The translations under genes and the position numbers were made by a program. A model generated the notes under the pieces. That model saw nothing but the letters and a program-made list of their open reading frames with translations. It was not told the DNA's origin and made no database searches. This document shows positions 24,005-38,193 of a DNA stretch of 64,000 bases, in pieces. Positions within the stretch are counted from its first letter, which is position 1, and every line of letters starts with the position of its first letter. Origin of the DNA: an uncultured Actinomycetota bacterium (GTDB lineage Bacteria; Actinomycetota; Actinomycetes; BP-191); assembly GCA_963765815.1 (NCBI GenBank), contig CAVXXT010000008.1, forward strand, positions 178,666-242,665, written 5' to 3'.

Positions 24005-25786
24005 TCAATCGGGGAGGGTGACCTTCTCCGGTACGGCGAGGGGCTGGACGCGGTAGCGGATCCGTCCCGGCGCGTCTCGCAGCGTCACGACGATCGTGTG
24101 TGTCACGCCGGGCTCGAGGTCCAGGTCAACCGTGACGAACGGGTGGGTCGCCTCGACGCCGGAGGTGAAGCGCGCGGCCTTGCCGTCGATGGTCACGGTG
24201 GAGAACGTGGCGGACGGTCCGGCGTAGACGCTCACCAGCTCGCGCGTCGAGCCCAGCACCGCGGCAGCGCGATGGTCGTCGAGGCGCAGGGTCTGCGTCG
24301 GCGACAGCGAGCTCACCGCGGGCGGTCGGTTGGTGAGTCGGACGGTCACCGATGTCTCGTCCGCAGCGCGAGCGACGGCGACGTCTCGACGGATGAACGC
24401 GTCCATCTTCCCGCCGCCGATGTTCTGCGTGGTGACCTGCACGAAGGGCCCGGTGCGCGGAAGCACGCTGCCGATCGCGGTCTCGTCGAGGAGGCGCTGC
24501 TCGTCGGCATGTGTGCTGGCGAGCTGGAAGTCGCCGGCCTTCAGGCCACCGGCCGCGATCGACTGCAGGTCGTTGAGCGAGAGCTTCGCGGAGATGAGCT
24601 TGTCGAGCGCCTTCTCGGCCAGCTCGGCGTTGGCGGCCTTGCGGGCCGGGTTGCTCTCGGCGAACTGGGAGTACTGCTCCACCTGCATGTAGTGCTCGGC
24701 GTTGGCACCGGTCACCGTCGTCCCGTCCGAGAGCCGCACCGGACCGGTCTCCGTGAGGATCCGTCCGATCGCGCGCGGGTTGAGCCCGAGCACGGCGTCG
24801 ACCCGCTGACCGGTCTGCGCGGTCCACAGCGTCGCCATGCGTGAGCTGGCGATGAGCCAGTCGGGCGTCGCGTTGGATCCTGCCCAGGTCTGCATCGCGG
24901 CCGTGCGGCCGGCACCGCCTGCGGCGAGCTGGGCGTACACCAGCTCGAAGCCGGTCAGGTCGAAGTTGCCGGTCGATGGGGTGAACCGCGCGAGGTCGCG
25001 GTTGATGCCGCTGCGTACGACGTCGATTCGGCCCTTGTCGACCTGGGCGATCGCGTAGCCGGTGACCAGCCCGCCGGTGGCGCGCGCCTCGGCCGGGTTC
25101 TGCACGGCGATGACATACGTCCGTACGCCGTCCGCCCCGAGCATCGGCACCGCGAGCCGCAGCGCGCGGTCTGCCTGGTCCATGCGCGTCCGCAGCCGGC
25201 CGACCTCGCGCAGCAGGTCCGACCGCCCTTGCCGCAGCGTCCCCAGCAGACCGCCGGAGGACATCCCCTCGAGGCGGGACTGGGCCGCGCGCCCGGCCGC
25301 CGCGGCGCGCGTCACCTGGGTGTGCAGCGAGCGGATCGCCGGCAGGTCGACCACTCCCGACTCGAACGGCGGGTCGTCCTCGACGTCGGCGAGCGCGTTG
25401 GACGCGGGGCCGAGCGCGTCGGTGGCGAGGTCGTCGACGACCCCGGTCAGGGTGCGCACCGCCGAGATCTGCCGGCCGAGCAGCGGCACCCTCGACGAGA
25501 TCTTCCAAAGGACACCCGACGTCGCGTCGTGCGCTGACGCCGCCCGCTTCGTGAGCTGCGCGACGTGGTCGCGCGCTCCCGCGATGTCGCCGTCGTCGAG
25601 GTCGCGCTCGAGGATGCGCGCGACCCGCCGGGCCTCCTCCAGGTCGCGTTTCGCGGTCAGCGCGTCGCGCAGGAACAGGCCGCCGACGACGAGTACGACG
25701 GCACCGACCCCGATGCCGATCTGCCGGCGCCGCTTGCGCCGGCCGGCCTTGTTGAGCTTTCCCCGCTTCGAGGAGCGCTCCGTCAC
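24005..25786 (-). CDS. DUF4012 domain membrane protein (polysaccharide-locus associated)
   Basis: GTG 25786 overlaps the upstream stop (GTGA) and is frame-checked. It has an N-terminal basic region plus a TM helix. MLGADGVRTYVIAVQNPAEARATGGLVTGYAIAQVDKGRI matches the DUF4012 core. Confidence 0.75.
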   Translation of the reverse strand: MTERSSKRGKLNKAGRRKRRRQIGIGVGAVVLVVGGLFLRDALTAKRDLEEARRVARILERDLDDGDIAGARDHVAQLTKRAASAHDATSGVLWKISSRVPLLGRQISAVRTLTGVVDDLATDALGPASNALADVEDDPPFESGVVDLPAIRSLHTQVTRAAAAGRAAQSRLEGMSSGGLLGTLRQGRSDLLREVGRLRTRMDQADRALRLAVPMLGADGVRTYVIAVQNPAEARATGGLVTGYAIAQVDKGRIDVVRSGINRDLARFTPSTGNFDLTGFELVYAQLAAGGAGRTAAMQTWAGSNATPDWLIASSRMATLWTAQTGQRVDAVLGLNPRAIGRILTETGPVRLSDGTTVTGANAEHYMQVEQYSQFAESNPARKAANAELAEKALDKLISAKLSLNDLQSIAAGGLKAGDFQLASTHADEQRLLDETAIGSVLPRTGPFVQVTTQNIGGGKMDAFIRRDVAVARAADETSVTVRLTNRPPAVSSLSPTQTLRLDDHRAAAVLGSTRELVSVYAGPSATFSTVTIDGKAARFTSGVEATHPFVTVDLDLEPGVTHTIVVTLRDAPGRIRYRVQPLAVPEKVTLPD

Positions 25787-26847
25787 GAAGCGGACACTGC
25801 GGGAGCAGGTGACGGCGACGCCGACGGCTCGATGGGGTGGAACGGCGGCGGCGGGGAGTCGTCGACCGCCGAGGGCGCGGCGGCGCGGGTCGGCGCCGGC
25901 GACACGGTCTGCCCCGCGTCGTCGAGCCAGTGCACGCCCGCGTCCTTCGTCTCGAGCACGACGAGCCGGCCGGCCTTCAGGCCGATGAGGATCCCCTTGC
26001 CGTCGGCCTGGAAGTCGGCGTCGAAGATCTTCACGACCCCGCCGACGCAGGCCGCCTTCGCCCACTTCAGGCCGCGGTCGGGGGTGATGCGGAGCTCTCC
26101 GGCGGTGCAGCGGTCGCTCTTGCCGATCCGGATCCAGCCGAGCGGGCCGTCGCGGAAGACGAGCGACTCCACGGCCCCGGGGCTGTCGATCCCGCCGGGT
26201 TGGGAGTCGATCCGCCGCTCCCAGCTCGCGCCGGCGTTGATCGTGCGCGCCAGCATGCGCTGCCCCTCCCGGCGCCCCTGGCAGAGGACCCACGCCCGCT
26301 TCGCGTCCAGCGCGGACACCAGCTGGGGCGGGCCGTCGTTGCTGCCGCACGGCGACTTCACGACCCGGCCCTCGACGGCGACCTCGTACGCCGCCGTCAC
26401 CGACGGCCGCGAGATCGTCCAGAGCGCGCCGTTGGCCAGGTCGAGCGCGACCACGCCGGGCGGCGTCTTCGGGGTGCGGATCCAGCTCACCCCGCCGTTG
26501 CTCGAGCTGAGCACGGTACGACGGCAGTCGACGTCGCGGCCGAGCAGCACGGCCTGCCCGCCGGTGTCGATCGAGATCTGGTCGACGGTGACGAGGGGGA
26601 CGGACACCGGCTGCCACGAGATAGCGGTACGCCGCTCGACGACGGTCGTGGCCGCGTTGCGGGTGCAGGCCGCCGGGCCGGTCCAGCGCAGGGCGTCGGT
26701 GCCGGTCGGCGCCAGCGCGACCACTCCTCCCTCGGCCGGCACGACGGTGTCGACCGGGGTGTCGGTCGGGCGGAGGGCCAGGTAGGCGAGCGTCCCCGTT
26801 CCGGCGGCGAGGACGGCGACGCCGGCCGCGGCGAGCAGCCGGTTCAC
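25783..26847 (-). CDS. Membrane-anchored BNR/Asp-box beta-propeller protein (copy 1)
   Basis: 354 aa with an N-terminal TM anchor. Asp-box-like repeats are SSSNGGVSW, TINAGASW, TPDRGLKW and TKDAGVHW. It has a Pro/Ala-rich tail. Confidence 0.7.
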   Translation of the reverse strand: MNRLLAAAGVAVLAAGTGTLAYLALRPTDTPVDTVVPAEGGVVALAPTGTDALRWTGPAACTRNAATTVVERRTAISWQPVSVPLVTVDQISIDTGGQAVLLGRDVDCRRTVLSSSNGGVSWIRTPKTPPGVVALDLANGALWTISRPSVTAAYEVAVEGRVVKSPCGSNDGPPQLVSALDAKRAWVLCQGRREGQRMLARTINAGASWERRIDSQPGGIDSPGAVESLVFRDGPLGWIRIGKSDRCTAGELRITPDRGLKWAKAACVGGVVKIFDADFQADGKGILIGLKAGRLVVLETKDAGVHWLDDAGQTVSPAPTRAAAPSAVDDSPPPPFHPIEPSASPSPAPAVSAS

Positions 26848-27116
26848 GCGTCGACCTCCGCCAGCAGGTCGCGCGCGAGCAGGTCCTCGATCAGCGGCTC
26901 GACGTCACGCGCGATGGTGACCGGCTCGACGTCGTACCGCTCGGCGAGCGTCGTGACGACGAGATCCGGGTCACCGGACTCCATCAGCAGCTGCCACACC
27001 TGGGCGGCGTGCGCGGACAGTCCGATCCACTCCCCGGTGCCGAGGTGCATGACGATCGCGGACTCGCCGTCGAGCACCCACCCCACGTGGTCGGGCTTGG
27101 CGTAGCGAGCGCTCAT
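26844..27116 (-). CDS. PqqD-family (RRE-like) small protein, copy 1
   Basis: ATG 27116 (frame-checked). 90 aa: ...VLDGESAIVMHLGTGEWIGLSAHAAQVWQLL...LAERYDVEPVTIARDVEPLIEDLLARDLL. Its stop overlaps the propeller start by 4 nt. Confidence 0.7.
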   Translation of the reverse strand: MSARYAKPDHVGWVLDGESAIVMHLGTGEWIGLSAHAAQVWQLLMESGDPDLVVTTLAERYDVEPVTIARDVEPLIEDLLARDLLAEVDA

Positions 27117-27192
27117 GTCCGGTCCCCGGGGGTGTGTCACACTCGGGATGTTCGCAGGCACGTTCATCCGCGCATTCTCCCTTGGACGGCTA

Positions 27193-28656
27193 GTGGATCT
27201 TCGCGATTACGTCCGACTTCTTCGTGTCCGTCGGCTGCTGATCATCACCTGCACGCTGCTCGGCCTGGCCGCAGCGGCCGCAGTGACGCTCGCCGCGACG
27301 CCTATCTATCAGGCGAAGGCGCGGCTGTTCGTGTCCTCGTCGGACAGCGGCAGCCTCGGCGCGGCCTACACCGGGTCGCTCTTCACCCAGGCCCGGGTGA
27401 AGTCCTACGTCACCTTGATCGACAGCCCGCCGGTGCTGCAGCCGGTCATCGAGGACCTCGGGCTCAACCTCACCACCTCCCAGCTCGCGGCGAAGGTCTC
27501 CGGCGACGCGCCGCTGGACACCGTGCTGATGACCGTCAGCGCCAACGACGAGTCGCCGGCGCAGGCGCAGCGGATCGCCAATGGCGTCTCCGACCAGCTC
27601 ACCGAGGTCATCAACAAGCTCGACACCACCGGCGCCGGGTCGCTGGTCAAGATCACCGTCGTGCAGCCGGCCCAGCTGCCCGGCTCGCCGATCACCCCGC
27701 GACGCAACCTCAACCTCGCGCTCGGCCTGCTGGTCGGCCTCGCGGTCGGCGTCGGCGCGGCGGTGGCCAAGGAGGCGCTCGACACGACGGTGAAGAGCGT
27801 CGAGGAGCTTCAGGAGTCCTTCGGGGTGAGCACACTCGGTGTCATCGCCAGTGACCCCGACACGCCGAAGCGCCCGCTGATCGTCCACGCGTCACCCCAC
27901 GCGCCACGGGCTGAGGCGTTCCGCCAGCTCCGCACCAACCTGCAGTTCGTCAACGTCGACGCCGAGCCGCGGTCGATCGTGGTGACCAGCGCGGTGCCCG
28001 GCGAGGGCAAGAGCACCACCGCCTGCAACCTGGCGATCACCATCGCCCACTCCGGCGTGCCGGTGATCCTGGTCGAGGGCGACCTGCGCCGGCCCAAGGT
28101 CGCGGAGTACATGGGACTGGAGGGCGCGGTCGGCCTCACCGACCTGCTCATCGGCCGCGCCGAGGTCGAGGATGTGCTGCAGCCGTGGGGCGGCGACGGG
28201 CGCCTGCAGGTGCTGCTGTCCGGTGCGCTGCCGCCGAATCCGTCGGAGGTGCTCGGCTCGCACCACATGGTGGAGATCCTGCGTGAGCTCGAGTCGCGGG
28301 CGCTGGTCATCATCGACGCTCCGCCTCTCCTGCCGGTGACCGACGCTGCGGTCCTGTCGACCGTGGTGAGCGGAACCCTGGTCGTGGTCGCGGCGAACCG
28401 GACCCGCCGTGACCAGCTGAACCACGCGGTGGAGGCGATCCGCAGCGTCGGCGGGGTGGTCTTCGGCGCGGTGCTGAACATGGTGCCGAGCAAGGGCCCG
28501 GACGCCTACCGCTACGGCTACGGGTACGGCGCCGACTACGCCTACGGCCCGGACGAGCAGGCCGCGGCCCGCAAGAAGCGTCCGAAGCGGCTCGACGCGC
28601 CGGTGCCGGTGCGCGCCGGCACTCCCGGCGCGCGCTCCAGCTCAGCCGGCGAGTAG
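27193..28656 (+). CDS. Polysaccharide co-polymerase / BY tyrosine autokinase (Wzz domain plus CpsD-like ATPase), copy 1
   Basis: Walker A SAVPGEGKSTTACNLA, A' VILVEGDLRRP, B LVIIDAPPLL, and a Tyr-rich tail YRYGYGYGADYAYG. The start is GTG 27193 or ATG 27148 (the track ORF begins at 27115). Confidence 0.85.
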   Translation: MDLRDYVRLLRVRRLLIITCTLLGLAAAAAVTLAATPIYQAKARLFVSSSDSGSLGAAYTGSLFTQARVKSYVTLIDSPPVLQPVIEDLGLNLTTSQLAAKVSGDAPLDTVLMTVSANDESPAQAQRIANGVSDQLTEVINKLDTTGAGSLVKITVVQPAQLPGSPITPRRNLNLALGLLVGLAVGVGAAVAKEALDTTVKSVEELQESFGVSTLGVIASDPDTPKRPLIVHASPHAPRAEAFRQLRTNLQFVNVDAEPRSIVVTSAVPGEGKSTTACNLAITIAHSGVPVILVEGDLRRPKVAEYMGLEGAVGLTDLLIGRAEVEDVLQPWGGDGRLQVLLSGALPPNPSEVLGSHHMVEILRELESRALVIIDAPPLLPVTDAAVLSTVVSGTLVVVAANRTRRDQLNHAVEAIRSVGGVVFGAVLNMVPSKGPDAYRYGYGYGADYAYGPDEQAAARKKRPKRLDAPVPVRAGTPGARSSSAGE

Positions 28657-28911
28657 CCCGCGGGCGGCGAAGTCCGCGAGCAGCACGTCCACCTCGATCA
28701 CGATCTGCTGCGGGTCGACGTCGTACCGCTCGGCCAGCACCGCCGCCACCTCGGCCGGCCCGCGCTCGCCGTCGAGCAGGTCGAACACCTCGACCGCGCG
28801 TACGTCGAGCAGGTTGAGCCGCTCCCCGTCGAACGTGACGATCTCGCCGTCGATGCGGGCGATCTCGATCGCCGGGTTGGGCCTCACACCATCGTCTCGA
28901 TCGCGTCGCAT
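28642..28911 (-). CDS. PqqD-family (RRE-like) small protein, copy 2
   Basis: 89 aa: ...IARIDGEIVTFDGERLNLLDVRAVEVFDLL...LAERYDVDPQQIVIEVDVLLADFAARGLLAG. It is a paralogue of copy 1 and overlaps the kinase-like gene by 28 nt. Confidence 0.7.
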   Translation of the reverse strand: MRRDRDDGVRPNPAIEIARIDGEIVTFDGERLNLLDVRAVEVFDLLDGERGPAEVAAVLAERYDVDPQQIVIEVDVLLADFAARGLLAG

Positions 28912-29699
28912 GCCGCGTCGAGGTCGCCGAAGACAAGCCGACCGGTGGCGCAGCCCTCAGTCGCGCCGGCGATCGCGTCGAGGGCATGGGGGAACAGGTG
29001 ACCGAGGCGGCTGGTGTTCTGGCCCAGCGCCATCATCGCGGTGGCCCGTGACACGGCGTCGACCGACGCCGTCGCCGACGCGTCGTACCGCGGCAGCAGG
29101 ACGTGCGTCGGGGTGCACTCGTCGTGCCGGACGACGCAGCCTGCCCGGATCTGCGAGGCCGGGACCTGCCAGGTCGGCTCGGCGTAGCGGCTCGGGACCG
29201 GCGCGTAGGCCGCGAGGACCGGCTGGGAGCCGGCCTTGACCGTCAGCGGCTTCGGGTACGGCGTGATTCGGCGGGTCGTCGGATCGACGACCACGGCCTC
29301 GTCGCTCAGGTAGTCCCAGCCACGAGCGATCAGCCCGGCGGTCAGGGTGGTCTTCCCCGAGCCGGACGTGCCGGAGAGCACGACCGTCCGGTCGCCCTTC
29401 GAGAGCCCCGCCGCGTGGAATATCAGCTTTCCCGTCGATGCGGTCACGACCGCGAGGTTGAGGAACTGGACGAGCAGCACCCCGGGCATGGCGCCGGTGT
29501 AGTCGGCCTCGGCGATCAGCTCGCCAGCACGAAAGAGGCCGCAGCGCGTCCCCTCGACCCGGAGGTCGAGAGGAGCTGCTGCGGCCTCTTCCGTGGCTAG
29601 CAGGTCCTGCAGGATGGTGCTGAGGTACGCCGTGTGCTCGGCGTCGAGTCCCCGAACAGCGGTGAGGGGACCCAGCGCGTTGGTCAGCGAACCGTCGTG
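28884..29699 (-). CDS. HPr-kinase-like P-loop protein (HprK-related kinase); start codon unresolved
   Basis: The track ORF starts at ATG 29489 (P-loop LSGTSGSGKTT). The frame stays open with coding-like GC3 for 70 more codons up to the in-frame TAG at 29700-29702. No ATG/GTG/TTG occurs in that stretch. Confidence 0.6.
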   Translation of the reverse strand, partial: HDGSLTNALGPLTAVRGLDAEHTAYLSTILQDLLATEEAAAAPLDLRVEGTRCGLFRAGELIAEADYTGAMPGVLLVQFLNLAVVTASTGKLIFHAAGLSKGDRTVVLSGTSGSGKTTLTAGLIARGWDYLSDEAVVVDPTTRRITPYPKPLTVKAGSQPVLAAYAPVPSRYAEPTWQVPASQIRAGCVVRHDECTPTHVLLPRYDASATASVDAVSRATAMMALGQNTSRLGHLFPHALDAIAGATEGCATGRLVFGDLDAACDAIETMV

Positions 29700-30350
29700 C
29701 TAGAGCAGGCCGGTGACGCTGTCGACCACGTGCTCGACGACGTCGAGCAGGTCCTCGACGATGCCGCCGTCCTCGGGGTTGCCGAACGGGAGGCAGATGT
29801 TCTGTCCGGCGTGGCACTCGAGCGGGGTCGGCCCGTCCTGCTTGCAGTCCGCGGTGGAGCCGCACTGCCCGCCGAGCTTGCTGCGCTGGCAGTAGCCGAA
29901 CTGGCAGCGGCCGGAGGAGCAGTCGTCGTTGGCGCTGCAGCTCGTGCCGTAGTTGCTGCCGGTGCAGACGCCGCCGGTGCAGCGGTTGGAGTGGCAGTCG
30001 GAGTTGGACGCGCACACGGAGCCGACGACGGCCCGCGAGCACACGCCGTCGACGCACGCGCCGCTGAAGCAGTCAGTGTTGTTGGCGCAGGTCTTGCCCG
30101 CGTTGCACTGGGTGCAGTTGGGGCCGCCGCACTGGGCGGCAGGGTCGGTCGGCGACGGACACAGCTGGTTGCTGGCGGCGAAGGCCGGCGCAGCAACGGA
30201 CTGAATGACCGGAACGGCCCAGACCGCTGCGCCGACGACGCCGGCCCGCTTGATCATGTCGCGGCGGTTGATGCCCCCGAGCTCGGCGACCTCCGCAGCA
30301 GAGTCCTTGCGTGCGGCGCGCTTCGCCCATCCATCGATCCAGTCGCTCAC
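29700..30350 (-). CDS. Tat-signal secreted cysteine-rich repeat protein (20 Cys)
   Basis: 216 aa. The twin-arginine motif is INRRDMIKRAGVVGAAVWAV...APAFAAS. Four repeats of the type C-x5-C-x4-C-x4-C are present (CANNTDCFSGACVDGVC, CASNSDCHSNRCTGGVC, CSANDDCSSGRCQFGYC and a looser fourth). It has an acidic C-terminal tail. GGAAGG lies 9 nt before GTG 30350. Confidence 0.7.
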   Translation of the reverse strand: MSDWIDGWAKRAARKDSAAEVAELGGINRRDMIKRAGVVGAAVWAVPVIQSVAAPAFAASNQLCPSPTDPAAQCGGPNCTQCNAGKTCANNTDCFSGACVDGVCSRAVVGSVCASNSDCHSNRCTGGVCTGSNYGTSCSANDDCSSGRCQFGYCQRSKLGGQCGSTADCKQDGPTPLECHAGQNICLPFGNPEDGGIVEDLLDVVEHVVDSVTGLL

Positions 30351-30550
30351 GGTGTGATGCCTTCCGGTCTGGGCCTCTTACCGCGATCTGCTGGAGAGAT
30401 CTTGGATGAGCCAGGTTTAGGGGTTCACTACGCAGGGTAGCCGACTAGTTCCGCTCTGTCACTACCTCTAGTCAGAAAGAGCTAGTTAACTTTTAGTTAC
30501 GCAAGGTGACACGCCCGTCTTTGTCCCGTTTCACCCGTTTGGCTTCAGGC
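30351..30550 (-). promoter_or_regulatory. AT-richer intergenic region with short repeats, upstream of the Cys-rich gene
   Basis: TCACTAC occurs at 30425 and 30459, CTAGT at 30445, 30468 and 30482, and TAGTTA(A)C at 30483 and 30494. This is the only sizeable gap in the minus-strand string. Confidence 0.3.
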
Positions 30551-31978
30551 TCACGCGTGCGGGTCAGAGTATCGGCGTACCAGGTCGAGGACTTCAGGCC
30601 CGCCCTGGGCGAGGTCGGACGCGATCCGGCCTTCGTGCACGGCGATCGCGCACGGCGTGCCCGGGGCGCCGAACGCATCGCCGACGGCGAAGCGCGGGTC
30701 CGTGAAGAGCGGGGCGGTGAGGCCGGAGCGGCGTACGGCCTCGGGATCGCCCTTGGACACCAGCACCAGGCCGTGCGCGGTGTCCTGCAGCGCGACGAGG
30801 TCGTCGGTGATCTGGGAGCAGTAGCCGCAGGTCGGGTCCCAGAAGACGAGTACGCCGGAGTGGACCGACCTGGCCGGGTCCACCGGCGTGCCCGAGCCGT
30901 CGTCGAGCAGCACCTCCGGCGCGGGGTCCCCTTCGCGCAGCGGCGGCGGCCCGACCTGCAGCGCGCCGTGGTCGTGTCCGTGGTGGTGGTCGTGCGCCGG
31001 CTGCTGGACGCCGTTGAGCGCGAACTCGACGAGCGACCCGACCTCGATCGACCCGTGCGCCGGGCCGCCGGAGATCTTGCCGTCGGGGGCGATGAGCACC
31101 GCGGCGGGGGTGCCGTTGACCTTGAAGCTGTCCGACACCGCCCGGTTCTCGTCGAGGAGGACGGTCAGGCCGGAGTCGCCGTACTTCGCGCGCACCTGCG
31201 CCTCGCGGCCCGACGCCACCATCACGAAGTCGAGCCGACCGGCGTGCAGGTCGTGCCAGCCCTTGAAGACCGGCAGCATCTCCTCGCACGGCCCGCAGGT
31301 TGGGCTGGTGTGCAGCAGCAGGACGGGCACGCCCGGCGCGAGCAGGTCGTCGCGCGTGCGGGTGACTCCGTCGAGGTCAGGCAGCTCGAAGTCCGGCGCC
31401 GGGATCCGTGGGTCCTCGCCGCGGGCGAGGATCTCCAGCGTCTCGACCCGGTGGAGGAGCACGCCGTAGCGGGTGAAGAGCTGCCAGCCGGCGAGCAGCA
31501 CGGCGAGCAGGACCAGCGCGAGCACCCCGACCAGCAGCTCGAGCGCGGTCCGGTCGGCGAGCCAGTCGCCCGTGGTGGGACCGACACGGCTCGCGCCGAC
31601 CCCCGCGAGGGCGAGGAAGACGACGTTGCGCACCAGCGAGCGCGTGCTGATCGAGCCCTTGCTCAGCGACCCGAAGCAGTGGCAGTCGGGCTGGCGGCCG
31701 AGGGCGAGGTTGACGCCGATTCCGACGGTGAACGCGGCGAGCATGGCGAGACCGAGGATCGCGCCGTACCGGCCGGCCGTGCCGCCGATGACCAGAAGCA
31801 CTGCCGCCAGCGCCTCCAGGACGGGCAGCGCCGGCGCGATCACGGCGGCGAGCGCCTTGGGTACGCCGAACGCCTGCACCGCATCGCGCGAGCCGTCCCG
31901 GTCGCGCAGCTTGCTGATGGCCGAGAGCGCAAACACCCCGGCCAGCGCCAGGCGGCAGATCACGACGAACGAGTTCAC
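30551..31978 (-). CDS. MauE/DoxX-family membrane domain fused to two thioredoxin-fold (MauD/TlpA-like) domains
   Basis: 475 aa. The N-terminal 4-5 TM region carries DCHCFG. Thioredoxin-fold domain 1 has TCGPC, followed by a His-rich linker AHDHHHGHDHG, and thioredoxin-fold domain 2 has TCGYC. Confidence 0.8.
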   Translation of the reverse strand: MNSFVVICRLALAGVFALSAISKLRDRDGSRDAVQAFGVPKALAAVIAPALPVLEALAAVLLVIGGTAGRYGAILGLAMLAAFTVGIGVNLALGRQPDCHCFGSLSKGSISTRSLVRNVVFLALAGVGASRVGPTTGDWLADRTALELLVGVLALVLLAVLLAGWQLFTRYGVLLHRVETLEILARGEDPRIPAPDFELPDLDGVTRTRDDLLAPGVPVLLLHTSPTCGPCEEMLPVFKGWHDLHAGRLDFVMVASGREAQVRAKYGDSGLTVLLDENRAVSDSFKVNGTPAAVLIAPDGKISGGPAHGSIEVGSLVEFALNGVQQPAHDHHHGHDHGALQVGPPPLREGDPAPEVLLDDGSGTPVDPARSVHSGVLVFWDPTCGYCSQITDDLVALQDTAHGLVLVSKGDPEAVRRSGLTAPLFTDPRFAVGDAFGAPGTPCAIAVHEGRIASDLAQGGPEVLDLVRRYSDPHA

Positions 31979-32047
31979 AAGGACCGGGGGCCTTCCGGAC
32001 GGACGTGCGGTGAGGTCAGCCTCGACATTGTGTCGAACTGCGGGACG

Positions 32048-32974
32048 TCACCTGCGCCGAGCGCTTCTGACCTGGCCGGCAGCCTTCGGCAGCTTGCGCA
32101 GGATCTGACCTGTGCGCTGGAACCACGCGAGGATCAGGCCGATTCCCCGGATCCGGGCGATTGGCCATCCGTATCGGAGGAACGCGGCGGTGGGGAACAC
32201 CTCGCGCAGCAGAAGCCGCGCCTTCTCGCGGCGCGTGGCCGCCGCGAACCGCGCCAGGAAGATGGCCGGGCCGCGCGCCCCTTGTGCTCGCAAGGCCCAC
32301 TCGAGTCCCGCCTCGGCGGTGATGCCGAGCTGATCCAGGACCGCTTGTCCGGCCGGCAGCTGCGACAACCCGCTCGCGAACGGTCGCTCCGCCCCGAGCT
32401 CCCGGGCCAACGTGAGCGCGTCGGCCCATTCCTGCGTGGTTGCGTGGTCGATCGCCCGCCGGAGGTCCTCTACGGACTTCGGCCGCGCTGGTCCTGAGAT
32501 GGCCGCGTGCAAAGCGATGATCAGTGCGCGTCCGGTCACGTCTAGCTGTGTGGCGCTGCCGCTGGCGGCGCTGAACGGCTCCGTGTGCGATGACAGCAGC
32601 GCGAAGGCCTGCTCTGGCGGAACCGCTACCCCGTGAAACGTTGTGTGCAGGTCGACCTCGAACTGGACGTTGTTTCCGGAGAGCGTCGCGGCATGACGTG
32701 GCAGCTCCGACTCGGTCGTGCCTTCCCCGGTGAGGCGCCACCCCATCTGGACGAACGCGTGTATGGCCCGCGTCAGGTCGACGGGCGCCACGAGCAGGTC
32801 GACGTCACCCAGAGCGCGATCTCGGTCCGGGTAGAGCCATCGCACTGTGGAGAGGCCCTTGAGCACGATGCACGACACGCTGGCCGCGTCGAGGAGGTAG
32901 ATAGCTCGGGCGTGTTGCAGCTCGCTCCAGGCGAGAGAGCTGCCCGGGCGCCCTACGACCTCATCCCGATTCAC
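32048..32974 (-). CDS. Uncharacterised nucleotidyltransferase (NTP_transf_5-like)
   Basis: GTG 32974 (frame- and sequence-checked) lies within a 386-aa track ORF. ...CIVLKGLSTVRWLYPDRDRALGDVDLLVAP... carries the pol-beta-type G-x-D-x-D motif. Confidence 0.6.
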   Translation of the reverse strand: MNRDEVVGRPGSSLAWSELQHARAIYLLDAASVSCIVLKGLSTVRWLYPDRDRALGDVDLLVAPVDLTRAIHAFVQMGWRLTGEGTTESELPRHAATLSGNNVQFEVDLHTTFHGVAVPPEQAFALLSSHTEPFSAASGSATQLDVTGRALIIALHAAISGPARPKSVEDLRRAIDHATTQEWADALTLARELGAERPFASGLSQLPAGQAVLDQLGITAEAGLEWALRAQGARGPAIFLARFAAATRREKARLLLREVFPTAAFLRYGWPIARIRGIGLILAWFQRTGQILRKLPKAAGQVRSARRR

Positions 32975-33140
32975 CGCCGCGCTCTCCTCGCTGCACGATC
33001 TTCTCTCGCAACGTACAAGCCGTACACGACGCGATCGCAAGTACGCTGAGTATCTGCACGGGATTGCGGTGGACGCGTGGAACGTGAAACCCGTGGTGCA
33101 AGGGTCACTGCGACAGGAGAAGGGGCTGAGGTCCAGGGCG

Positions 33141-34094
33141 GTGAGTTCTGTGACACTGGGCGTGATCATCGTCACGTACAACAGCTCCGCGGTTCTGCCG
33201 CACTGCATTGAATCGCTCGCAGCCGCGCTCGATCACGCGAACGGATGCGGAATCAGCGCAGATGTCGTGATCGTCGACAACGCCTCGAGGGAGCCACCCT
33301 CGAATTCACTCGGACTCTCGTTCGAGTTGATCCAGCTAGCGGAGAACCTCGGGTTCGCGCCTGCGGTCAACATCGGCTTGGCGCGTCTTGCCGAGACAGA
33401 CTTCGTCCTCCTTCTCAACCCGGACACACGCATCGAGGCTGACTCGATCGCTCGAATGGTGTCCCTTGCGCGTGATCGGAACGCGGCGCTCGTCGGGCCA
33501 CTGCTGGTCGACGAGCTCGGGAAGCCAAACGGCTACTCGGAGAGGCCCTTCCACTCGGTGCGGTGGGAGATCGCTCGGCAGTGGATCGGCAGGACTCCTC
33601 CGATTCCGGCTGGGAAGGTCGCGCTACGTACAGGTGCCGCTCGGTGTCTCACCGGTGCATGCCTGCTCGTAGACGGCCCATTCTTTCGGCGCGTAGGCGG
33701 ACTCGATGCTGTCATTCCGATGTACCTGGAGGATGTCGAGCTCGCAGCCAGTGCCCATCGCGAGGGCTTGCCAGTCCTGCTGGACGTGAAGTCGCGATGT
33801 GTTCATGCCCTGGGTGGAAGCAGCGAGGGCAAGAGCTTCGCCACTGCGATCGGCCTGCGACTCATGCTGCTCGCCGCGCGCGTCGAGTTCGTGCGTCGAC
33901 GTTCGCACGTGCGTTCCTCGCTGCTGAGAGTGGTCATCCTCACTGGTGCACTGTCGAGGTGGTTCGTCGAAACTGCGCGGCGCAAGAGACTGGCAGCAAG
34001 CACTCATCTCGCCGTGGCTCGTTGGGCGCTGACCTCCGGGCTGCCACCCCAGTGGCCGTTGGCGGATACGGCTGACGAGCGCACCTCATCGTGA
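33141..34094 (+). CDS. Family 2 glycosyltransferase
   Basis: VTLGVIIVTYNS, VIVDNAS and LLLNPDTRI motifs. The start is uncertain (in-frame GTGs at 33069, 33141 and 33150). Confidence 0.8.
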   Translation: MSSVTLGVIIVTYNSSAVLPHCIESLAAALDHANGCGISADVVIVDNASREPPSNSLGLSFELIQLAENLGFAPAVNIGLARLAETDFVLLLNPDTRIEADSIARMVSLARDRNAALVGPLLVDELGKPNGYSERPFHSVRWEIARQWIGRTPPIPAGKVALRTGAARCLTGACLLVDGPFFRRVGGLDAVIPMYLEDVELAASAHREGLPVLLDVKSRCVHALGGSSEGKSFATAIGLRLMLLAARVEFVRRRSHVRSSLLRVVILTGALSRWFVETARRKRLAASTHLAVARWALTSGLPPQWPLADTADERTSS

Positions 34095-35647
34095 GCGTGG
34101 ACACCGAACATCAAGAAGATGCGCGGAGACTGCGCCGGCGGACAGTGTCGTTCGGACTCGGAATCCTGCTCAGCCGAGTAACCGGCCTCCTGAGGGAGGT
34201 GCTGCTCTCCCGGAGCCTCGGAACCTCTCCTGCGGCGAGTGCCATCGTCGTGGCACAGGTCTTTCCGTCCCTGCTCCGGGGTCTCTTCGCCGATGACGTC
34301 GCTCAGGGTGCACTCGCACCGGTGCTGGGCAGGCATCATTCAAGGTCGGCTCAACGTGCAGTGGTGCAGATCACGCGGTGGTCGGCAGTCGCATCAACGG
34401 TGCTCGCGGTAGCGCTCGCCCTGGTCGCATTGCCGAGCACCGGCGTCCTCATCGGAGTCGCCGGGCCTGGACTCGACGCCGGAACGTCCCTGATGGCCGA
34501 GCACTTTCTGCGCCTTCTTCTGCCTGTGGTTGCAGTGAGCGGCCTGGCTGCGTCCGGGTCCGCATTGCTAGTAGTTCGAGGTCGGGTCGGCACGATCGCA
34601 GTCCTCAATACGGTGTCGAACCTCCCGATGGTGCTCGGCCTGATCTTCCTCACACCGTCGGCGGACGGGATCACGAAGCTCCTGACTGCCGGTCTTGTCC
34701 TTCAGGCGATCGGTCTATTCCTCACGTCCGGCGCCCTTTCGCTCCGAGCGGACCTTGAGTCCGATGAGGCAATGCCGAGGGAGGAGGTGCGCAGGGAGGG
34801 GTGGAGTGCGGCGCGGCTGGCCTTGCCGGTTGCGCTCTCACTCGGCGCGGCCAACCTCTCGGGGGTCGTGGACGTCGCGTTCGCGTCGGCGATCTCGAGT
34901 GCGGCGCCGGCGGCGCTCGACAAGGCGTTCCGACTCATGCTGCTGCCGTACGGCATTCTTGGGCTTGCGGTGACCGTCGCGGCCGTACCAGCGCTTGTCG
35001 CTGCGGCGGACGGCACGGATCACGATTACCAGTTGCACCTGCGACGTGCCGTCAAGCTCCAGGTGCTCCTGCTACTCCCGGCCGCGGCCTTCCTCTTGGC
35101 CCTTGCCGAGCCGATCGTCCGCCTCGTCTATCAACGAGGCGCATTCGACGAGGGCAGCGTCCAGATCGTCACTCATGCCGTCAGGGGGTCAGCCCCACTG
35201 CTGATCGCTCTGGGGCTGAGCGCGTTGGGAACGCGAGCGTGGACAGTGCGCCGGCGACCGTGGCTCCCCGCCGCCGCGGGTGTTGTCGGTGTGGCGTTCA
35301 ACGCAGGCTTCGACGCCCTCCTCGTAGGCCCACTAGGGGTGGCGGGGATCGCCTTGGCGACGGCGCTCGTTCATGGTGCTCTGGGCGGCTTCCTTCTTGT
35401 CCGGGCCGGGCTGCTCAATCAGGGAATCTCACCGGGTCGCGTTCTGCGCTCGATGGCTCCCGGACTCTTGGGGGGTGCATTCGTCCTTCCTCTGGTCGCC
35501 GGTCCATCTCAGGTGGACCGACCGCTGGCGGCCGTGGGGCTCGGGGCGGTAGCGATTGCGCTCGGAACGTTGACTGGCGCCCGTCTCTTCCGGGTCGACG
35601 AGTATCTTGACTTTCTTCGGATCCGCCGTGGCCGCGCAGCTGCTTGA
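34091..35647 (+). CDS. MurJ/MviN-like (MOP superfamily) flippase
   Basis: GTG 34091 overlaps the GT2 stop (GTGA). 518 aa and polytopic. The N-terminus ...FGLGILLSRVTGLLREVLLSRSLGTS is MurJ-like. Confidence 0.7.
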   Translation: MSVDTEHQEDARRLRRRTVSFGLGILLSRVTGLLREVLLSRSLGTSPAASAIVVAQVFPSLLRGLFADDVAQGALAPVLGRHHSRSAQRAVVQITRWSAVASTVLAVALALVALPSTGVLIGVAGPGLDAGTSLMAEHFLRLLLPVVAVSGLAASGSALLVVRGRVGTIAVLNTVSNLPMVLGLIFLTPSADGITKLLTAGLVLQAIGLFLTSGALSLRADLESDEAMPREEVRREGWSAARLALPVALSLGAANLSGVVDVAFASAISSAAPAALDKAFRLMLLPYGILGLAVTVAAVPALVAAADGTDHDYQLHLRRAVKLQVLLLLPAAAFLLALAEPIVRLVYQRGAFDEGSVQIVTHAVRGSAPLLIALGLSALGTRAWTVRRRPWLPAAAGVVGVAFNAGFDALLVGPLGVAGIALATALVHGALGGFLLVRAGLLNQGISPGRVLRSMAPGLLGGAFVLPLVAGPSQVDRPLAAVGLGAVAIALGTLTGARLFRVDEYLDFLRIRRGRAAA

Positions 35648-35662
35648 GGTCAGAGGAACACT

Positions 35663-37156
35663 GTGAATCGCAGGTCCGCTCCGTTCGCGGCAGGCGCCGC
35701 GACGATCGTGATCGCGGTGTTGCTCGCATACTTCGCGACGCAGGCTGCGGCTGTTCTCGCCGAAGGACAGGCGCCGCTCATCACCTTTCGGTGGATCTTC
35801 CTGCTGCTCGGAGCGGGGTCGCTCGGGTTGACCGCGTACGGCTTGGTTTGGGCTCCGAGATCCAGGCAGCTCCCAGTCGTCATGCTCGGCGGATTCGCCT
35901 CGCTCATCACGTTGGGGCTTTGGAGCGACTTGTCGCTCGAACGCTACCGAAGCCTTGCCTACCCGATCGCGGCGTATTTGCCGCTTCCGACCGCCTCGCA
36001 GATCGGCACCGTCATTCTTCGGGACGGGGTCGCGTTTCTCGCTTGGGCCTACGGCATGGCGCTTGTGGGTGGTCGGATGAAGCGTCGTCAGGTGTTGGAA
36101 CCCGCGCGCGCGCAGTCGCTCGATGAGCAGTCGCACCGTCTCCGCATCGCCGCGCATGTGTTGTTCGCGATCGGATTCGTCGGCTCTGCGGTCCTTGTTG
36201 CCAGTACCCGCACGATCGCAATCTTCGAGAGGGACATCGACACGGTCCGATACGCGCAGGGGAGCAGCCTCGGTTTCGCGACGTTGCTCCAGTTCTGCCT
36301 TGTTCCTACGTGCGTGCTCTACCTCGTGGTGTTCTTCATGCGTGGTCGCAGAGACGTCGTCGCTCTTCTCCTTGGCCTGGCCGCCATTACCTTGCTTGTC
36401 ATGACTCGTGCCGAGCGAAGTCCTCTGATCCTTGTGGCATTGGGAGCGCTGTTTTTCGCCCGACGAGATGAGATCAAGCTGAACGTGCGGTCGCTTGGCG
36501 TCGTCGTCATTCTGCTAGTGGTTCTGAGCCAGCTGCTCGGACTTCTGCGCCTGCAGTCCGAGCGCACGGAACGCGATCCGCGGGAAGGTACGGTTCGTGC
36601 ACTTCTCGATGTGTCCCCCGAACTTCGGGAGCGAGCGTTCCTCTACGAGTTCGTGCCGGACCGCAAGGATCATCTGGGCTTCGACGCGGTTCCCGCACTC
36701 ACGTTGTCAGTTCTTCCAGGCCGAGTGCTATCCCTCGTCGGTGTCCAGAAGAAGGAGTCCTACACGGACTCGTCTCGCATCTACTCCCAGATGATGAGAG
36801 ATCTCGGCTACTACGAGACAGTGAAGCCCATTCGGGTCGGCATCACCGGCGAGCTGTGGCTAGATGGAGGGTGGCTTGCGCTGATCGTGGGGATGTTCTT
36901 CTTCGGCACCTTGGTGTCGTGGCTCAACAGTCTCAATCCCGCGGATCCGATTCTGCGGGCGGCAGCTGCGTTGGCATCGGCCTACGTCGTCTTTGCTCTC
37001 ATCACCCCGCTGGGGGCGCTCCTGCCGATTGCCATGGTCACGTTGTTGTCGATGATGGGCATCGCAGGACTGGTGAGTCGTCGCGTCGAGCGCGCGGCCC
37101 CCTACAGGCTGCGGAACACGCGTTCCGTCTCCTCGGCGATGCGGGGCCATGTGTAA
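35663..37156 (+). CDS. Polytopic membrane protein, probable oligosaccharide repeat-unit polymerase (Wzy-like)
   Basis: 497 aa with more than 10 predicted TM helices and a central loop, in a GT/flippase context. Its GC is low relative to the window. No diagnostic motif was recognised. Confidence 0.5.
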   Translation: MNRRSAPFAAGAATIVIAVLLAYFATQAAAVLAEGQAPLITFRWIFLLLGAGSLGLTAYGLVWAPRSRQLPVVMLGGFASLITLGLWSDLSLERYRSLAYPIAAYLPLPTASQIGTVILRDGVAFLAWAYGMALVGGRMKRRQVLEPARAQSLDEQSHRLRIAAHVLFAIGFVGSAVLVASTRTIAIFERDIDTVRYAQGSSLGFATLLQFCLVPTCVLYLVVFFMRGRRDVVALLLGLAAITLLVMTRAERSPLILVALGALFFARRDEIKLNVRSLGVVVILLVVLSQLLGLLRLQSERTERDPREGTVRALLDVSPELRERAFLYEFVPDRKDHLGFDAVPALTLSVLPGRVLSLVGVQKKESYTDSSRIYSQMMRDLGYYETVKPIRVGITGELWLDGGWLALIVGMFFFGTLVSWLNSLNPADPILRAAAALASAYVVFALITPLGALLPIAMVTLLSMMGIAGLVSRRVERAAPYRLRNTRSVSSAMRGHV

Positions 37157-38193
37157 TCGGTCTCTACCCGAATGCGCCCCGCCTTCCCGATCCGGGCCGA
37201 GGCTGGCTCATCCGCCAGCACCTCGCCGAGCACCCTCGCCAAGTCGGCTGCATCACGCGTCCGGAACGTCCGGCCGGCATCGCCCCTCGTGACCTCCTCG
37301 CACTCTGGAATGGCGGAGTGGATCACTGGTCGCGAGTGACTCATCGCTTCCAGCAGGCTCAGGGGGAGGCCCTCCATCACGGATGGCAGGACGTACGCGC
37401 GGCAGTGGGCGAAGAGCTCCTGTAGCGCGACTCCAGTGCGGAAGCCGGCGAAGATGACGCCGGGCGGTGCCGACTGCCGAAGCGATTGTTCGTAATCGTC
37501 GGCGTACGAGGCCCCGCCGGATCCGGCGATGACCAGCGGGATGTTCGAGCCGAGCTCCCGATATGCGTCGAGTAGGTAATGCGCGCCTTTCTCGGGAACG
37601 AGCCGGGCGGCGAACAAGACGTACTCGTTCGGCTTGACGTGCAACTCTTCGAGGACCGTGGTGGTCGTGACCGCGTCGGGAATGCGCACGCCGTTAGGGA
37701 TGTAATGCGATTCGATGCCGAGCCTCGAACGCAGCGCGTCCCGCAGCGTCTGGCTGACGGCGATGACGGCGTCAGCACGTCCTAGCGACAGGCGCACGCC
37801 CATTCCGAAACTGCGGCTCGCAGCGCGGCTCCACTTGTCGCGCTCCCAGTCGAGTCCCTGGACAGTCACGACCGTGGGGACACCGCGAAAGCGTGGAACC
37901 ACGCCAAGCATGCCCGGTCCTACGCCGTGGAAATGGGCGATGTCGGGCCGGTCGCGAACCACGAGCGGGAGGGACGCAAGCGTCTGGGTGATGGTGTGGA
38001 GGTGCTTGGTGCGAACGCACCGGACGCCGCGGACCCGCACGCCCTGATGCTCACGCCACAGCCCTGGGCCGTCGACGATCGCGCGAACCTCGTGGCCCCG
38101 CCGGGCGAGCTCAACCGAGAGCTGCTCGGCGGCGACCTCGAGCCCGCCGTGCTGGGCCGGGACGCTGCGCGCCCCTAGCATGTCAATCCGCAC
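37102..38193 (-). CDS. Family 4 glycosyltransferase
   Basis: 363 aa. ...GGLEVAAEQLSVELARRGHEV...FAARLVPEKG...VLPSVMEGLPLSLLEAM (E-x7-E). Confidence 0.85.
   Translation of the reverse strand: MRIDMLGARSVPAQHGGLEVAAEQLSVELARRGHEVRAIVDGPGLWREHQGVRVRGVRCVRTKHLHTITQTLASLPLVVRDRPDIAHFHGVGPGMLGVVPRFRGVPTVVTVQGLDWERDKWSRAASRSFGMGVRLSLGRADAVIAVSQTLRDALRSRLGIESHYIPNGVRIPDAVTTTTVLEELHVKPNEYVLFAARLVPEKGAHYLLDAYRELGSNIPLVIAGSGGASYADDYEQSLRQSAPPGVIFAGFRTGVALQELFAHCRAYVLPSVMEGLPLSLLEAMSHSRPVIHSAIPECEEVTRGDAGRTFRTRDAADLARVLGEVLADEPASARIGKAGRIRVETDYTWPRIAEETERVFRSL

Follow-up and report, generated by a model that had tools for sequence, protein, structure and literature searches.

A 64,000-nucleotide stretch of DNA from an uncultured Actinomycetota bacterium of soil, of the Mycobacteriales type (contig CAVXXT010000008.1; hereafter the window) carries on its minus strand a cassette of five genes, which encode, in order, an NTP_transf_5 nucleotidyltransferase, a fusion of MauE with two thioredoxin (Trx) folds and, beyond a 200-bp gap, a Cys-rich precursor protein with a signal for the twin-arginine translocation (Tat) system, an HprK-related kinase and a PqqD protein. 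The cassette is conserved and unpublished, and it would join tailoring by a recognition element (RRE) of RiPPs (peptides that are ribosomally synthesised and modified after translation), a kinase and an NTP transferase with a disulfide enzyme of the MauE type and a Tat leader; a literature search on the gene set and its families, including PF14907 and TIGR04352, found no description of this gene combination or of the precursor family. Its domain content, synteny and leader motifs recur, together with multi-copy precursors whose cores vary. Judged from sequence, this conserved cassette probably, and with moderate confidence on our part, serves to mature small disulfide-rich proteins that are exported, with a RiPP-like build and a Tat substrate. 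The most likely arrangement, by domain content and analogy, is RRE-guided kinase/nucleotidyltransferase tailoring, related to the tailoring of lasso peptides and LPPs, joined to a dedicated DsbB/DsbA-like MauE–Trx oxidase.

The fusion protein and its Cys-rich neighbour

Residues 1-129 of the fusion match Pfam MauE (PF07291) at 104.5 bits against a cut-off of 27, and Pfam also finds two AhpC-TSA/Redoxin stretches. The NCBIfam equivalog model of MauD (TIGR02661) matches the fifth transmembrane segment (TM5) and Trx1 (residues 153-317) at 50 bits, far under its cut-off of 188.6. The motifs DCHCFG, CGPC, HDHHHGHDH and CGYC lie at residues 98, 228, 329 and 384, and the C99-H-C101-F-G site, with a Lys in TM1 (K23) and a Glu in TM2 (E55), gives the protein the published features of MauE. 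CxCFG is universal among the 91 homologues recovered, the sites F[ST]DPxCGPC of Trx1 and FWNPGCGFC of Trx2 are widely kept, and K23, E55, C99, C101, C228 and C231 are invariant in an alignment of 18 homologues (A4). The second Trx site reads CGFA in the nearest relatives (P0004-P0006 and P0022). By its domain matches, the fusion is equivalent to MauE and MauD with an extra Trx domain, and this MauE+MauD architecture is real.

The precursor has exactly 20 Cys residues, with spacings of 9,4,2,5,5,4,4,8,5,4,4,8,5,4,4,8,5,9,6. Three identical C-x5-C-x4-C-x4-C units (Cys 88-104, 113-129 and 138-154), with 8 residues between units, are preceded by four extra Cys residues and followed by a looser fourth unit. 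The N-terminus, INRRDMIKRAGVVGAAVWAVPVIQSVAAPAFA/AS, makes a good twin-arginine signal and ends in an AxA site for cleavage; it reads N-R-R-D-M-I-K ... A-F-A/AS around a moderately hydrophobic h-region, and export of the precursor is predicted. Arg-29 is invariant and Arg-30 is kept in at least 90% of the leader-family alignment, and TatC is encoded in the organism's own genome (208 bits). The AlphaFold model builds the core with a pLDDT of 85-94 as tandem modules of ~25 residues, and places helices at residues 3-13 and 29-52. A Foldseek search of the PDB found no significant match to the core, only weak matches to knottin toxins (best E 0.26, TM-score 0.72-0.76 over 36 residues, root-mean-square deviation 1.8-1.9 Å, with toxins of 34-35 residues). 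An acidic C-terminal helix, EDGGIVEDLLDVVEHVVDSVTGLL, stands after the core (residues 194-216, 29700-29770 on the minus strand, with the predicted helix at 197-213); it is found here and in the 82% relative P0002, and in no other family member.

The original prediction had described a single polypeptide with a MauE domain (DCHCFG) and two thioredoxin folds beside a Tat-signal protein of 20 Cys, whose first three repeats are spaced identically and which belongs to no nameable family. The motifs, scores and counts given above bear this out, and neither Pfam nor NCBIfam holds a match for the precursor. Its suggestion that the His-rich linker binds metal fared less well: HDHHHGHDH is present, but it is confined to this fusion and to its 82%-identical relative at locus L001, and it was rejected as a family feature.

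Table 1. Positions of the cassette genes, their motifs and the neighbouring features in the window.
Feature	Position	Strand	Basis or remark
NTP_transf_5 (PF14907) nucleotidyltransferase, first cassette gene	32048-33208	-	Pfam, 64.1 bits against 31.2
MauE (4 TM) + TM5 + Trx1 (CGPC) + His-rich linker + Trx2 (CGYC) fusion gene	30551-31978	-	475 aa
CHC, CxC active-site motif of MauE, residues 99-101	31676-31684	-	sequence
HDHHHGHDH linker separating Trx1 and Trx2	30968-30994	-	sequence
Gap between fusion and precursor genes	30351-30550	.	200 bp; only sizeable gap in the gene string
Cys-rich precursor: N-terminal helix DWIDGWAKRAARK, twin-arginine signal, 20-Cys core, acidic C-terminal helix	29700-30350	-	216 aa, GTG start
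WAVPVI (W44-A-V-P47-V-I), candidate RRE docking site within the signal peptide	30204-30221	-	sequence motif
Cys-rich core of four tandem modules of ~25 residues, residues 64-186	29793-30161	-	AlphaFold
HprK-related P-loop kinase, Walker A GTSGSGKTT	28884-29699	-	TIGR04352, 108.8 bits, E 2.6e-31
Stable RNA hairpin, ~30 bp, near-perfect, ~70 nt past the precursor stop, within the 5' kinase frame	29505-29630	-	minimum free energy -82.3 kcal/mol, z -8.45
PqqD-family RRE, discrete, overlapping the end of the kinase gene	28642-28911	-	Pfam PF05402, 35.8 bits against 23.4
Wzz + P-loop ATPase (BY-kinase type)	27115-28656	+	Pfam; convergent with the cassette, divergent from the second-PqqD operon
Second PqqD gene	26844-27167	-	Pfam PF05402, 53.6 bits against 23.4
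Membrane-anchored BNR-like protein	25783-26847	-	coupled to second PqqD
DUF4012 protein	24005-25786	-	coupled to second PqqD and BNR-like genes

Leader family and conserved gene neighbourhood

A word-indexed search with the single precursor found only one relative. An exhaustive HMMER search with it gave 507 matches of two kinds, namely large multi-repeat proteins in which the Cys repeat is all that is shared and which have weak Pfam matches to DUF7107, Dickkopf_N and EB, and ~40 small proteins (110-360 aa) that align with the precursor from residue 1. The latter share a helix at the N-terminus, W-[LFI]-D-x-[WL]-A-[KR]-R-A-A, then a linker that varies, and the signal S-R-R-D-F-L-K-K-A-G-x-V-G-x-x-x-W-x-x-P-V-[IL]-Q-[ST]-V-x-A-P-A-x-A, after which the Cys patterns vary widely. 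A conserved leader with a hypervariable core is a sequence signature of ribosomal peptide precursors, and the alignment places the Cys-rich precursor in a real family that is defined by its leader. A 15-residue hidden Markov model (HMM) of the N-terminal helix was too weak and was replaced by a position-specific scoring matrix, by which a Cys-rich protein at locus L094 is clearly a member, a PLA2-like protein of Rubrivirga (0.04) and a Nonomuraea peptide (0.06) are borderline, and the leader of MauA is not significant (corrected p ~0.14).

The candidate docking site WAVPVI lies within the signal peptide, and its W44 and P47 are kept in at least 90% of family alignment A2. Among the unique leaders of all fetched loci, 63 of 65 have the twin Arg followed within 8-26 residues by W-x-x-P-x-[LVIFAM]; around both exceptions, the fetched DNA contains no kinase or PqqD gene. 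The published motif by which PqqD-type RREs bind the leaders of lasso peptides, PQQ and LPPs is [Y/W]xxPx[L/V/I/F/A] (PMC13381572). The precursor has the marks of an RRE-dependent leader peptide, a [Y/W]xxPx motif in a conserved leader and a variable core. Since the leader motif is the published RRE-binding motif, the hydrophobic part of the Tat signal is, by our inference, where the PqqD protein docks.

Thirteen loci with full-length MauE–Trx–Trx fusions, taken from species-representative genomes and all from uncultured Actinomycetota, were annotated with HMMs of the cassette proteins; two contigs were too short to judge, leaving 11 informative loci. Eight of these contain one to four leader-family precursors together with the kinase and PqqD, and a Tat-signal Cys-rich gene adjoins the fusion in 10. 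Directly upstream of the fusion, L094 encodes a 49-Cys protein ('HWFDRFAAQAA...SRRGFLTK') and L093 an RR-signal protein with 62 Cys, and no recognisable Cys-rich neighbour is present at L087. The original prediction hinged on conserved adjacency between the Cys-rich family and MauE-type genes; the fusion lies beside Tat-signal Cys-rich genes in most informative loci, and this adjacency therefore holds. The cassette recurs in L001 (82% identical, with the same gene order), L002 (a metagenome-assembled genome of Mycobacteriales from the same genus, GCA_035536235), L003/L004, L005 and L081, and the genes at the precursor position in L002, L003 and L005 are leader-family members. NTP_transf_5 adjoins the fusion in L002, L003, L005 and L095. 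At L081, four paralogous precursors lie beside one fusion and an HprK–PqqD fused gene; the second of these paralogues (7926-8684) appears frameshifted, with the N-terminus WLDRWAKRA in another frame (8080-8220).

A family-profile scan of 401 genomes of the phylum gave matches in 31, and the neighbours were read in 34 fetched loci. The commonest neighbour of the precursors is the HprK-like kinase (~22 loci), followed by PqqD, and Wzz/BY-kinase is frequent. The kinase and PqqD, rather than MauE, are the constant partners of the precursor family across Actinomycetota. Full MauE–Trx fusions are confined to the clade of the window, and other classes carry soluble PqqD–Trx (CGFC) fusions instead. 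Natural fusions join HprK to PqqD (L081, L088, L089 and L091), MauE–Trx to PqqD (P0073, P0076 and P0089), PqqD to Trx (L041, L043, L050, L053 and L061), a GT4 glycosyltransferase to NTP_transf_5 (L082), and MauE–Trx to a Cys-rich domain (P0083, and a Streptomyces protein of 510 aa encoded on plasmid NZ_CP109358). The HprK–PqqD, MauE–Trx–PqqD, MauE–Trx–Cys-rich and GT4–NTP_transf_5 fusions thus tie the five functions together.

The Streptomyces protein (Streptomyces sp. NBC_01562; L121 6001-7533) consists of MauE–Trx, then RR and a hydrophobic segment, then the Cys-rich C-terminal domain; it looks like an enzyme–substrate fusion and a convenient laboratory entry point in a cultured strain. Outside the phylum, in the Bacteroidota-related Rubrivirga marina, a PLA2G12-like protein with 18 Cys (L007 7438-7989) is encoded directly upstream of a MauE–Trx–Trx fusion; its N-terminus is MTHRLDRFARALGA, and the locus has no kinase or PqqD. 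Split MauE and Trx genes lie near small peptide open reading frames with 6-8 Cys in Micromonospora sp. MP36 (L097 6565-6798, ...ALADRFLAL...) and in Nonomuraea sp. (L098 7727-7906, ...GLVDRLLARV...), and these pairs may be miniature versions of the same substrate–enzyme pairing.

A possible maturation pathway and its rivals

In the pathway that we propose, the PqqD-type RRE would bind the WxxP strand of the signal peptide in the cytoplasm and present the precursor to the HprK-like kinase, which would phosphorylate Ser/Thr. The NTP_transf_5 enzyme would add to the phosphate, as the PsmK/PsmN pair of pseudomycoidin and the LppK/LppN pair of the LPPs suggest by analogy. The Tat system would then export the precursor, and the MauE–Trx–Trx fusion would introduce or shuffle the ~ten disulfides, with the CxC loop of MauE handing electrons to quinone and the MauD-like Trx domains acting as dedicated equivalents of DsbA/DsbC. 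The product probably acts at the cell surface with the polysaccharide of the surrounding Wzz/BY-kinase, glycosyltransferase, MurJ and Wzy genes. We infer every catalytic step of this scheme, the order of the steps and the membrane side of the thiol chemistry.

The tailoring part has its closest counterparts in LPP, paeninodin and pseudomycoidin biosynthesis. The lasso precursor of pseudomycoidin is phosphorylated by PsmK, and attachment of a hexose to the phosphate requires PsmN (PMC6993621). The LPP clusters of Bacillota have an RRE that is discrete, a kinase resembling HprK and an uncharacterised NTP transferase in glycosyltransferase-rich loci, and precursors whose N-terminus is conserved and whose C-terminus varies, of which LppK poly-phosphorylates one Ser (PMC13381572). 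The present cassette shares with these systems the RRE, the HprK-like kinase and the NTP transferase, the glycosyltransferase-rich loci, the one to several precursors built in this way and the [Y/W]xxPx[LVI] leader motif. It differs from them in that its leader is a twin-arginine signal, which stands in for the LPP peptidase/exporter, in that its cores are Cys-rich proteins of 100-300 residues, in the addition of the MauE/Trx enzyme, and in its occurrence in Actinomycetota instead of Bacillota; a lasso cyclase, a B2 protease, an SpI-like leader peptidase and an MsbA-type exporter are not among the 14 neighbouring proteins scanned. The best NCBIfam match of the kinase, and a weak match of PqqD, are to the HPr-rel-A system (TIGR04352 HprK-related kinase A and TIGR04353 PqqD family chaperone), but both scores are under the cut-off (108.8 against 200 for the kinase and 17.3 against 35 for PqqD), making these proteins relatives and not members. 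We know of no substrate defined for the HPr-rel-A system.

The redox part resembles the mau cluster, as the original prediction had proposed. In the Paracoccus methylovorus cluster, too, a MauE with CxC and a MauD-type thioredoxin with a TM anchor adjoin a small disulfide-dense Tat-signal protein with an unusually long leader, and the MauA leader, MLGNFRFDAMVERLSRRVAGRTSRRGAIG, has the same layout as the precursor, an N-terminal extension followed by RR, although this likeness is architectural only. Here, however, MauE and MauD form one polypeptide with a second Trx, and the substrate is an unrelated repeat protein; no MauA, MauB, MauG or amicyanin gene lies nearby, and MauA and MauB domains are absent from the 14 neighbouring proteins scanned. 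The parallel to mau maturation survives in the conserved adjacency, the MauE+MauD architecture and the MauE–Trx–Cys-rich fusions, but the cassette has three genes besides the pair, MauE is not the phylum-wide partner of the precursors, and the MauA leader is not a significant match. As a candidate DsbB-like enzyme, the fusion shares with MauE at large the CxC-F-G site, the Lys and Glu of TM1 and TM2 and the fusion to a thioredoxin fold, which is found in 8.2% of MauE entries (Gonzalez et al., bioRxiv 10.64898/2026.03.05.709764). That preprint regards MauE as a generalist and gives no account of substrates dedicated to it, of Cys-rich neighbours with Tat signals, or of links to genes for PqqD, HprK or NTP transferases.

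Which side of the membrane the thiol chemistry takes place on divides the proposed pathway from its most serious rival. In E. coli, MauE takes the place of DsbB; it requires its CXC and probably uses quinone. The CXC is essential in two MauE proteins, and TOPCONS puts it in the periplasm in these (bioRxiv 10.64898/2026.03.05.709764). The complementation of dsbB implies a periplasmic CXC, and a periplasmic CXC together with five TM segments places the Trx domains outside, so that the disulfides would be formed after export. This placement is more likely than one inside, and we prefer it because it rests on experiment. In the rival, which we consider unlikely, the cassette is the same but the CxC loop and the Trx domains are cytoplasmic; the core would be oxidised or redox-held while the RRE holds the leader, and would leave via Tat already folded, as a natural counterpart of engineered cytoplasmic disulfide formation with Tat export. 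The charge bias speaks for it: the mean number of Lys and Arg residues per sequence in 89 fusion homologues is 0.01 in the N-terminus, 4.17 in loop 1, 0.28 in loop 2, 3.65 in loop 3 (PDCHCFG) and 0.7 in loop 4, conserved positive residues stand just after TM5, and these counts predict that the CXC loop lies opposite to the extracytoplasmic face. Paracoccus MauE and MauD share this charge pattern. So do the natural fusions speak for it, for the three MauE–Trx–PqqD proteins have no TM segment between Trx and PqqD, the five PqqD–Trx (CGFC) proteins have no signal or TM segment and are therefore predicted to be cytoplasmic, and two independent fusions of MauE–Trx with RR, a hydrophobic helix and a Cys-rich domain put that domain outside only if Trx is inside; moreover, folding ahead of export would suit a Tat signal on a protein that can reach its fold only through disulfides. 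The positive-inside rule, however, is a statistical one, and the fusions could be artefacts of assembly or annotation, or their hydrophobic linkers not membrane-inserted, whereas complementation of dsbB by two MauE proteins requires oxidation of periplasmic DsbA, TOPCONS agrees with it, and thioredoxins of the TlpA/ResA/MauD type are classically extracytoplasmic. We therefore regard it as doubtful that a cytoplasmic quinone-linked oxidase, tethered directly or via PqqD to the signal peptide of its substrate, folds a disulfide-only protein for acceptance by Tat. If it did, the twin-arginine signal would be an RRE-binding leader, an export gate and a quality checkpoint at once, and methylamine dehydrogenase's MauA might follow the same logic. 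To our knowledge, the compartment in which the disulfides of MauA are formed has not been established.

Several further points weigh against a dedicated maturation cassette. The precursors of other Actinomycetota classes are accompanied by the kinase and PqqD and not by MauE, and L082 has the N-terminal helix with no MauE within 8 kb; the kinase scores 108.8 under a curated cut-off of 200, and its gene has no canonical start in the first 70 codons; PF14907 is presumably, by our own assumption, the family of PsmN and LppN; and the membrane side is contested by the charge bias and the natural fusions. In addition, the fusion need not be substrate-specific, and a MauE protein may be the general oxidase of the organism, because neither DsbB nor VKOR was detected in its own genome, which is 84% complete and in which MauE proteins may be the only membrane thiol oxidases. 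It is nevertheless improbable that the fusion, placed in a polysaccharide locus, serves the envelope as a general oxidase, or as a reductase/isomerase of the TlpA/ResA kind, and has no specific tie to its Cys-rich neighbour. MauE has indeed been proposed as a generalist disulfide-forming protein (bioRxiv 10.64898/2026.03.05.709764), and a three-Trx relative from Thermomicrobiales (L008) is, like the fusion at L087, without a Cys-rich neighbour. Yet a Tat-signal Cys-rich gene stands beside the fusion in all but one of the informative loci, its fusions with PqqD and with Cys-rich domains link the enzyme to this class of substrate, and the Rubrivirga fusion too follows a Cys-rich PLA2-like protein. 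The genome also has two further stand-alone MauE genes, three MauE-family genes with the fusion, and these two could cover general needs and leave the fusion to its cassette. Least probable is that the Cys residues form thioether (lanthionine-like) cross-links through kinase-driven activation of Ser/Thr, or that the repeats and the His-rich linker bind metal. Kinase-based dehydration is known in class III/IV lanthipeptides, a conserved Ser/Thr follows Cys by two or three residues in many repeats (DC[FLH]S[GN]xC), and the His-rich linker is present; but the Pfam/NCBIfam scan shows no lyase or cyclase domain, the enzyme that recurs with the precursors is a thiol-disulfide enzyme, the linker is not conserved, and AlphaFold models the modules as compact knottin-like units.

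If the cassette does mature its precursors as proposed, these would make up a new family, apparently a large one, of bacterial mini-proteins that are exported, hypervariable and knotted by disulfides, and a Tat signal that also carries an RRE docking motif would link RiPP-style tailoring to protein export. The cassette would provide the newly recognised MauE oxidase with a dedicated class of natural substrates outside methylamine metabolism, and a tractable means of finding out which membrane face MauE and MauD act on. The Wzz/BY-kinase and glycosyltransferase neighbours and the GT4–NTP_transf_5 fusion would suggest a protein component of actinobacterial surface-polysaccharide assembly, possibly phospho-glycosylated. 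Peptide engineers may also take an interest in variable, knottin-like cores that come with their own kit for folding and export.

Gene starts, an RNA hairpin and the surrounding genes

The homologues of the NTP_transf_5 protein are ~300 aa long, and therefore its true start probably lies downstream of 33208. The kinase frame is open from the TAG of the precursor, and its first canonical start is the ATG at 29489. The first 70 kinase codons (29490-29699, minus strand) contain no ATG, GTG or TTG and align with the N-termini of homologues that start just past the precursor gene; CTG codons 5 and 9 after the TAG are kept in L001. The kinase may begin at a non-canonical codon, or translation from ATG 29489 may give a protein shortened at its N-terminus. 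Read-through of the TAG, joining precursor to kinase, was rejected, as L001 has a TAA stop and a 2-nt indel that shifts the kinase frame.

The RNA hairpin is 100% identical in L001, though the loci are 87% identical overall, and is absent in more distant relatives. It occurs as a single copy in the genome, and an origin as a dispersed element of the REP/MITE type (repetitive extragenic palindrome or miniature inverted-repeat transposable element) was rejected on this ground. The hairpin could set the ratio of precursor to enzyme transcripts. A simple scan of the 200-bp gap found no sigma-70-like promoter.

The Wzz/BY-kinase gene is kept beside the cassette in many loci, and GT2, MurJ-like, Wzy-like and GT4 genes lie on the other side of the cassette; these neighbours mark a surface-polysaccharide locus. 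The trio of the second PqqD, BNR-like and DUF4012 genes (24005-27167, minus strand), which has no modifying enzyme, is kept next to the Wzz gene in L002, L003, L088, L091 and L092. The G+C content of the window is 64-78%, and it drops from 0.69-0.78 elsewhere to 0.64-0.66 over 32001-38000 (nucleotidyltransferase, GT2, MurJ-like, Wzy-like and GT4 genes), which fits an exchanged polysaccharide-specificity segment with its edge at the cassette.

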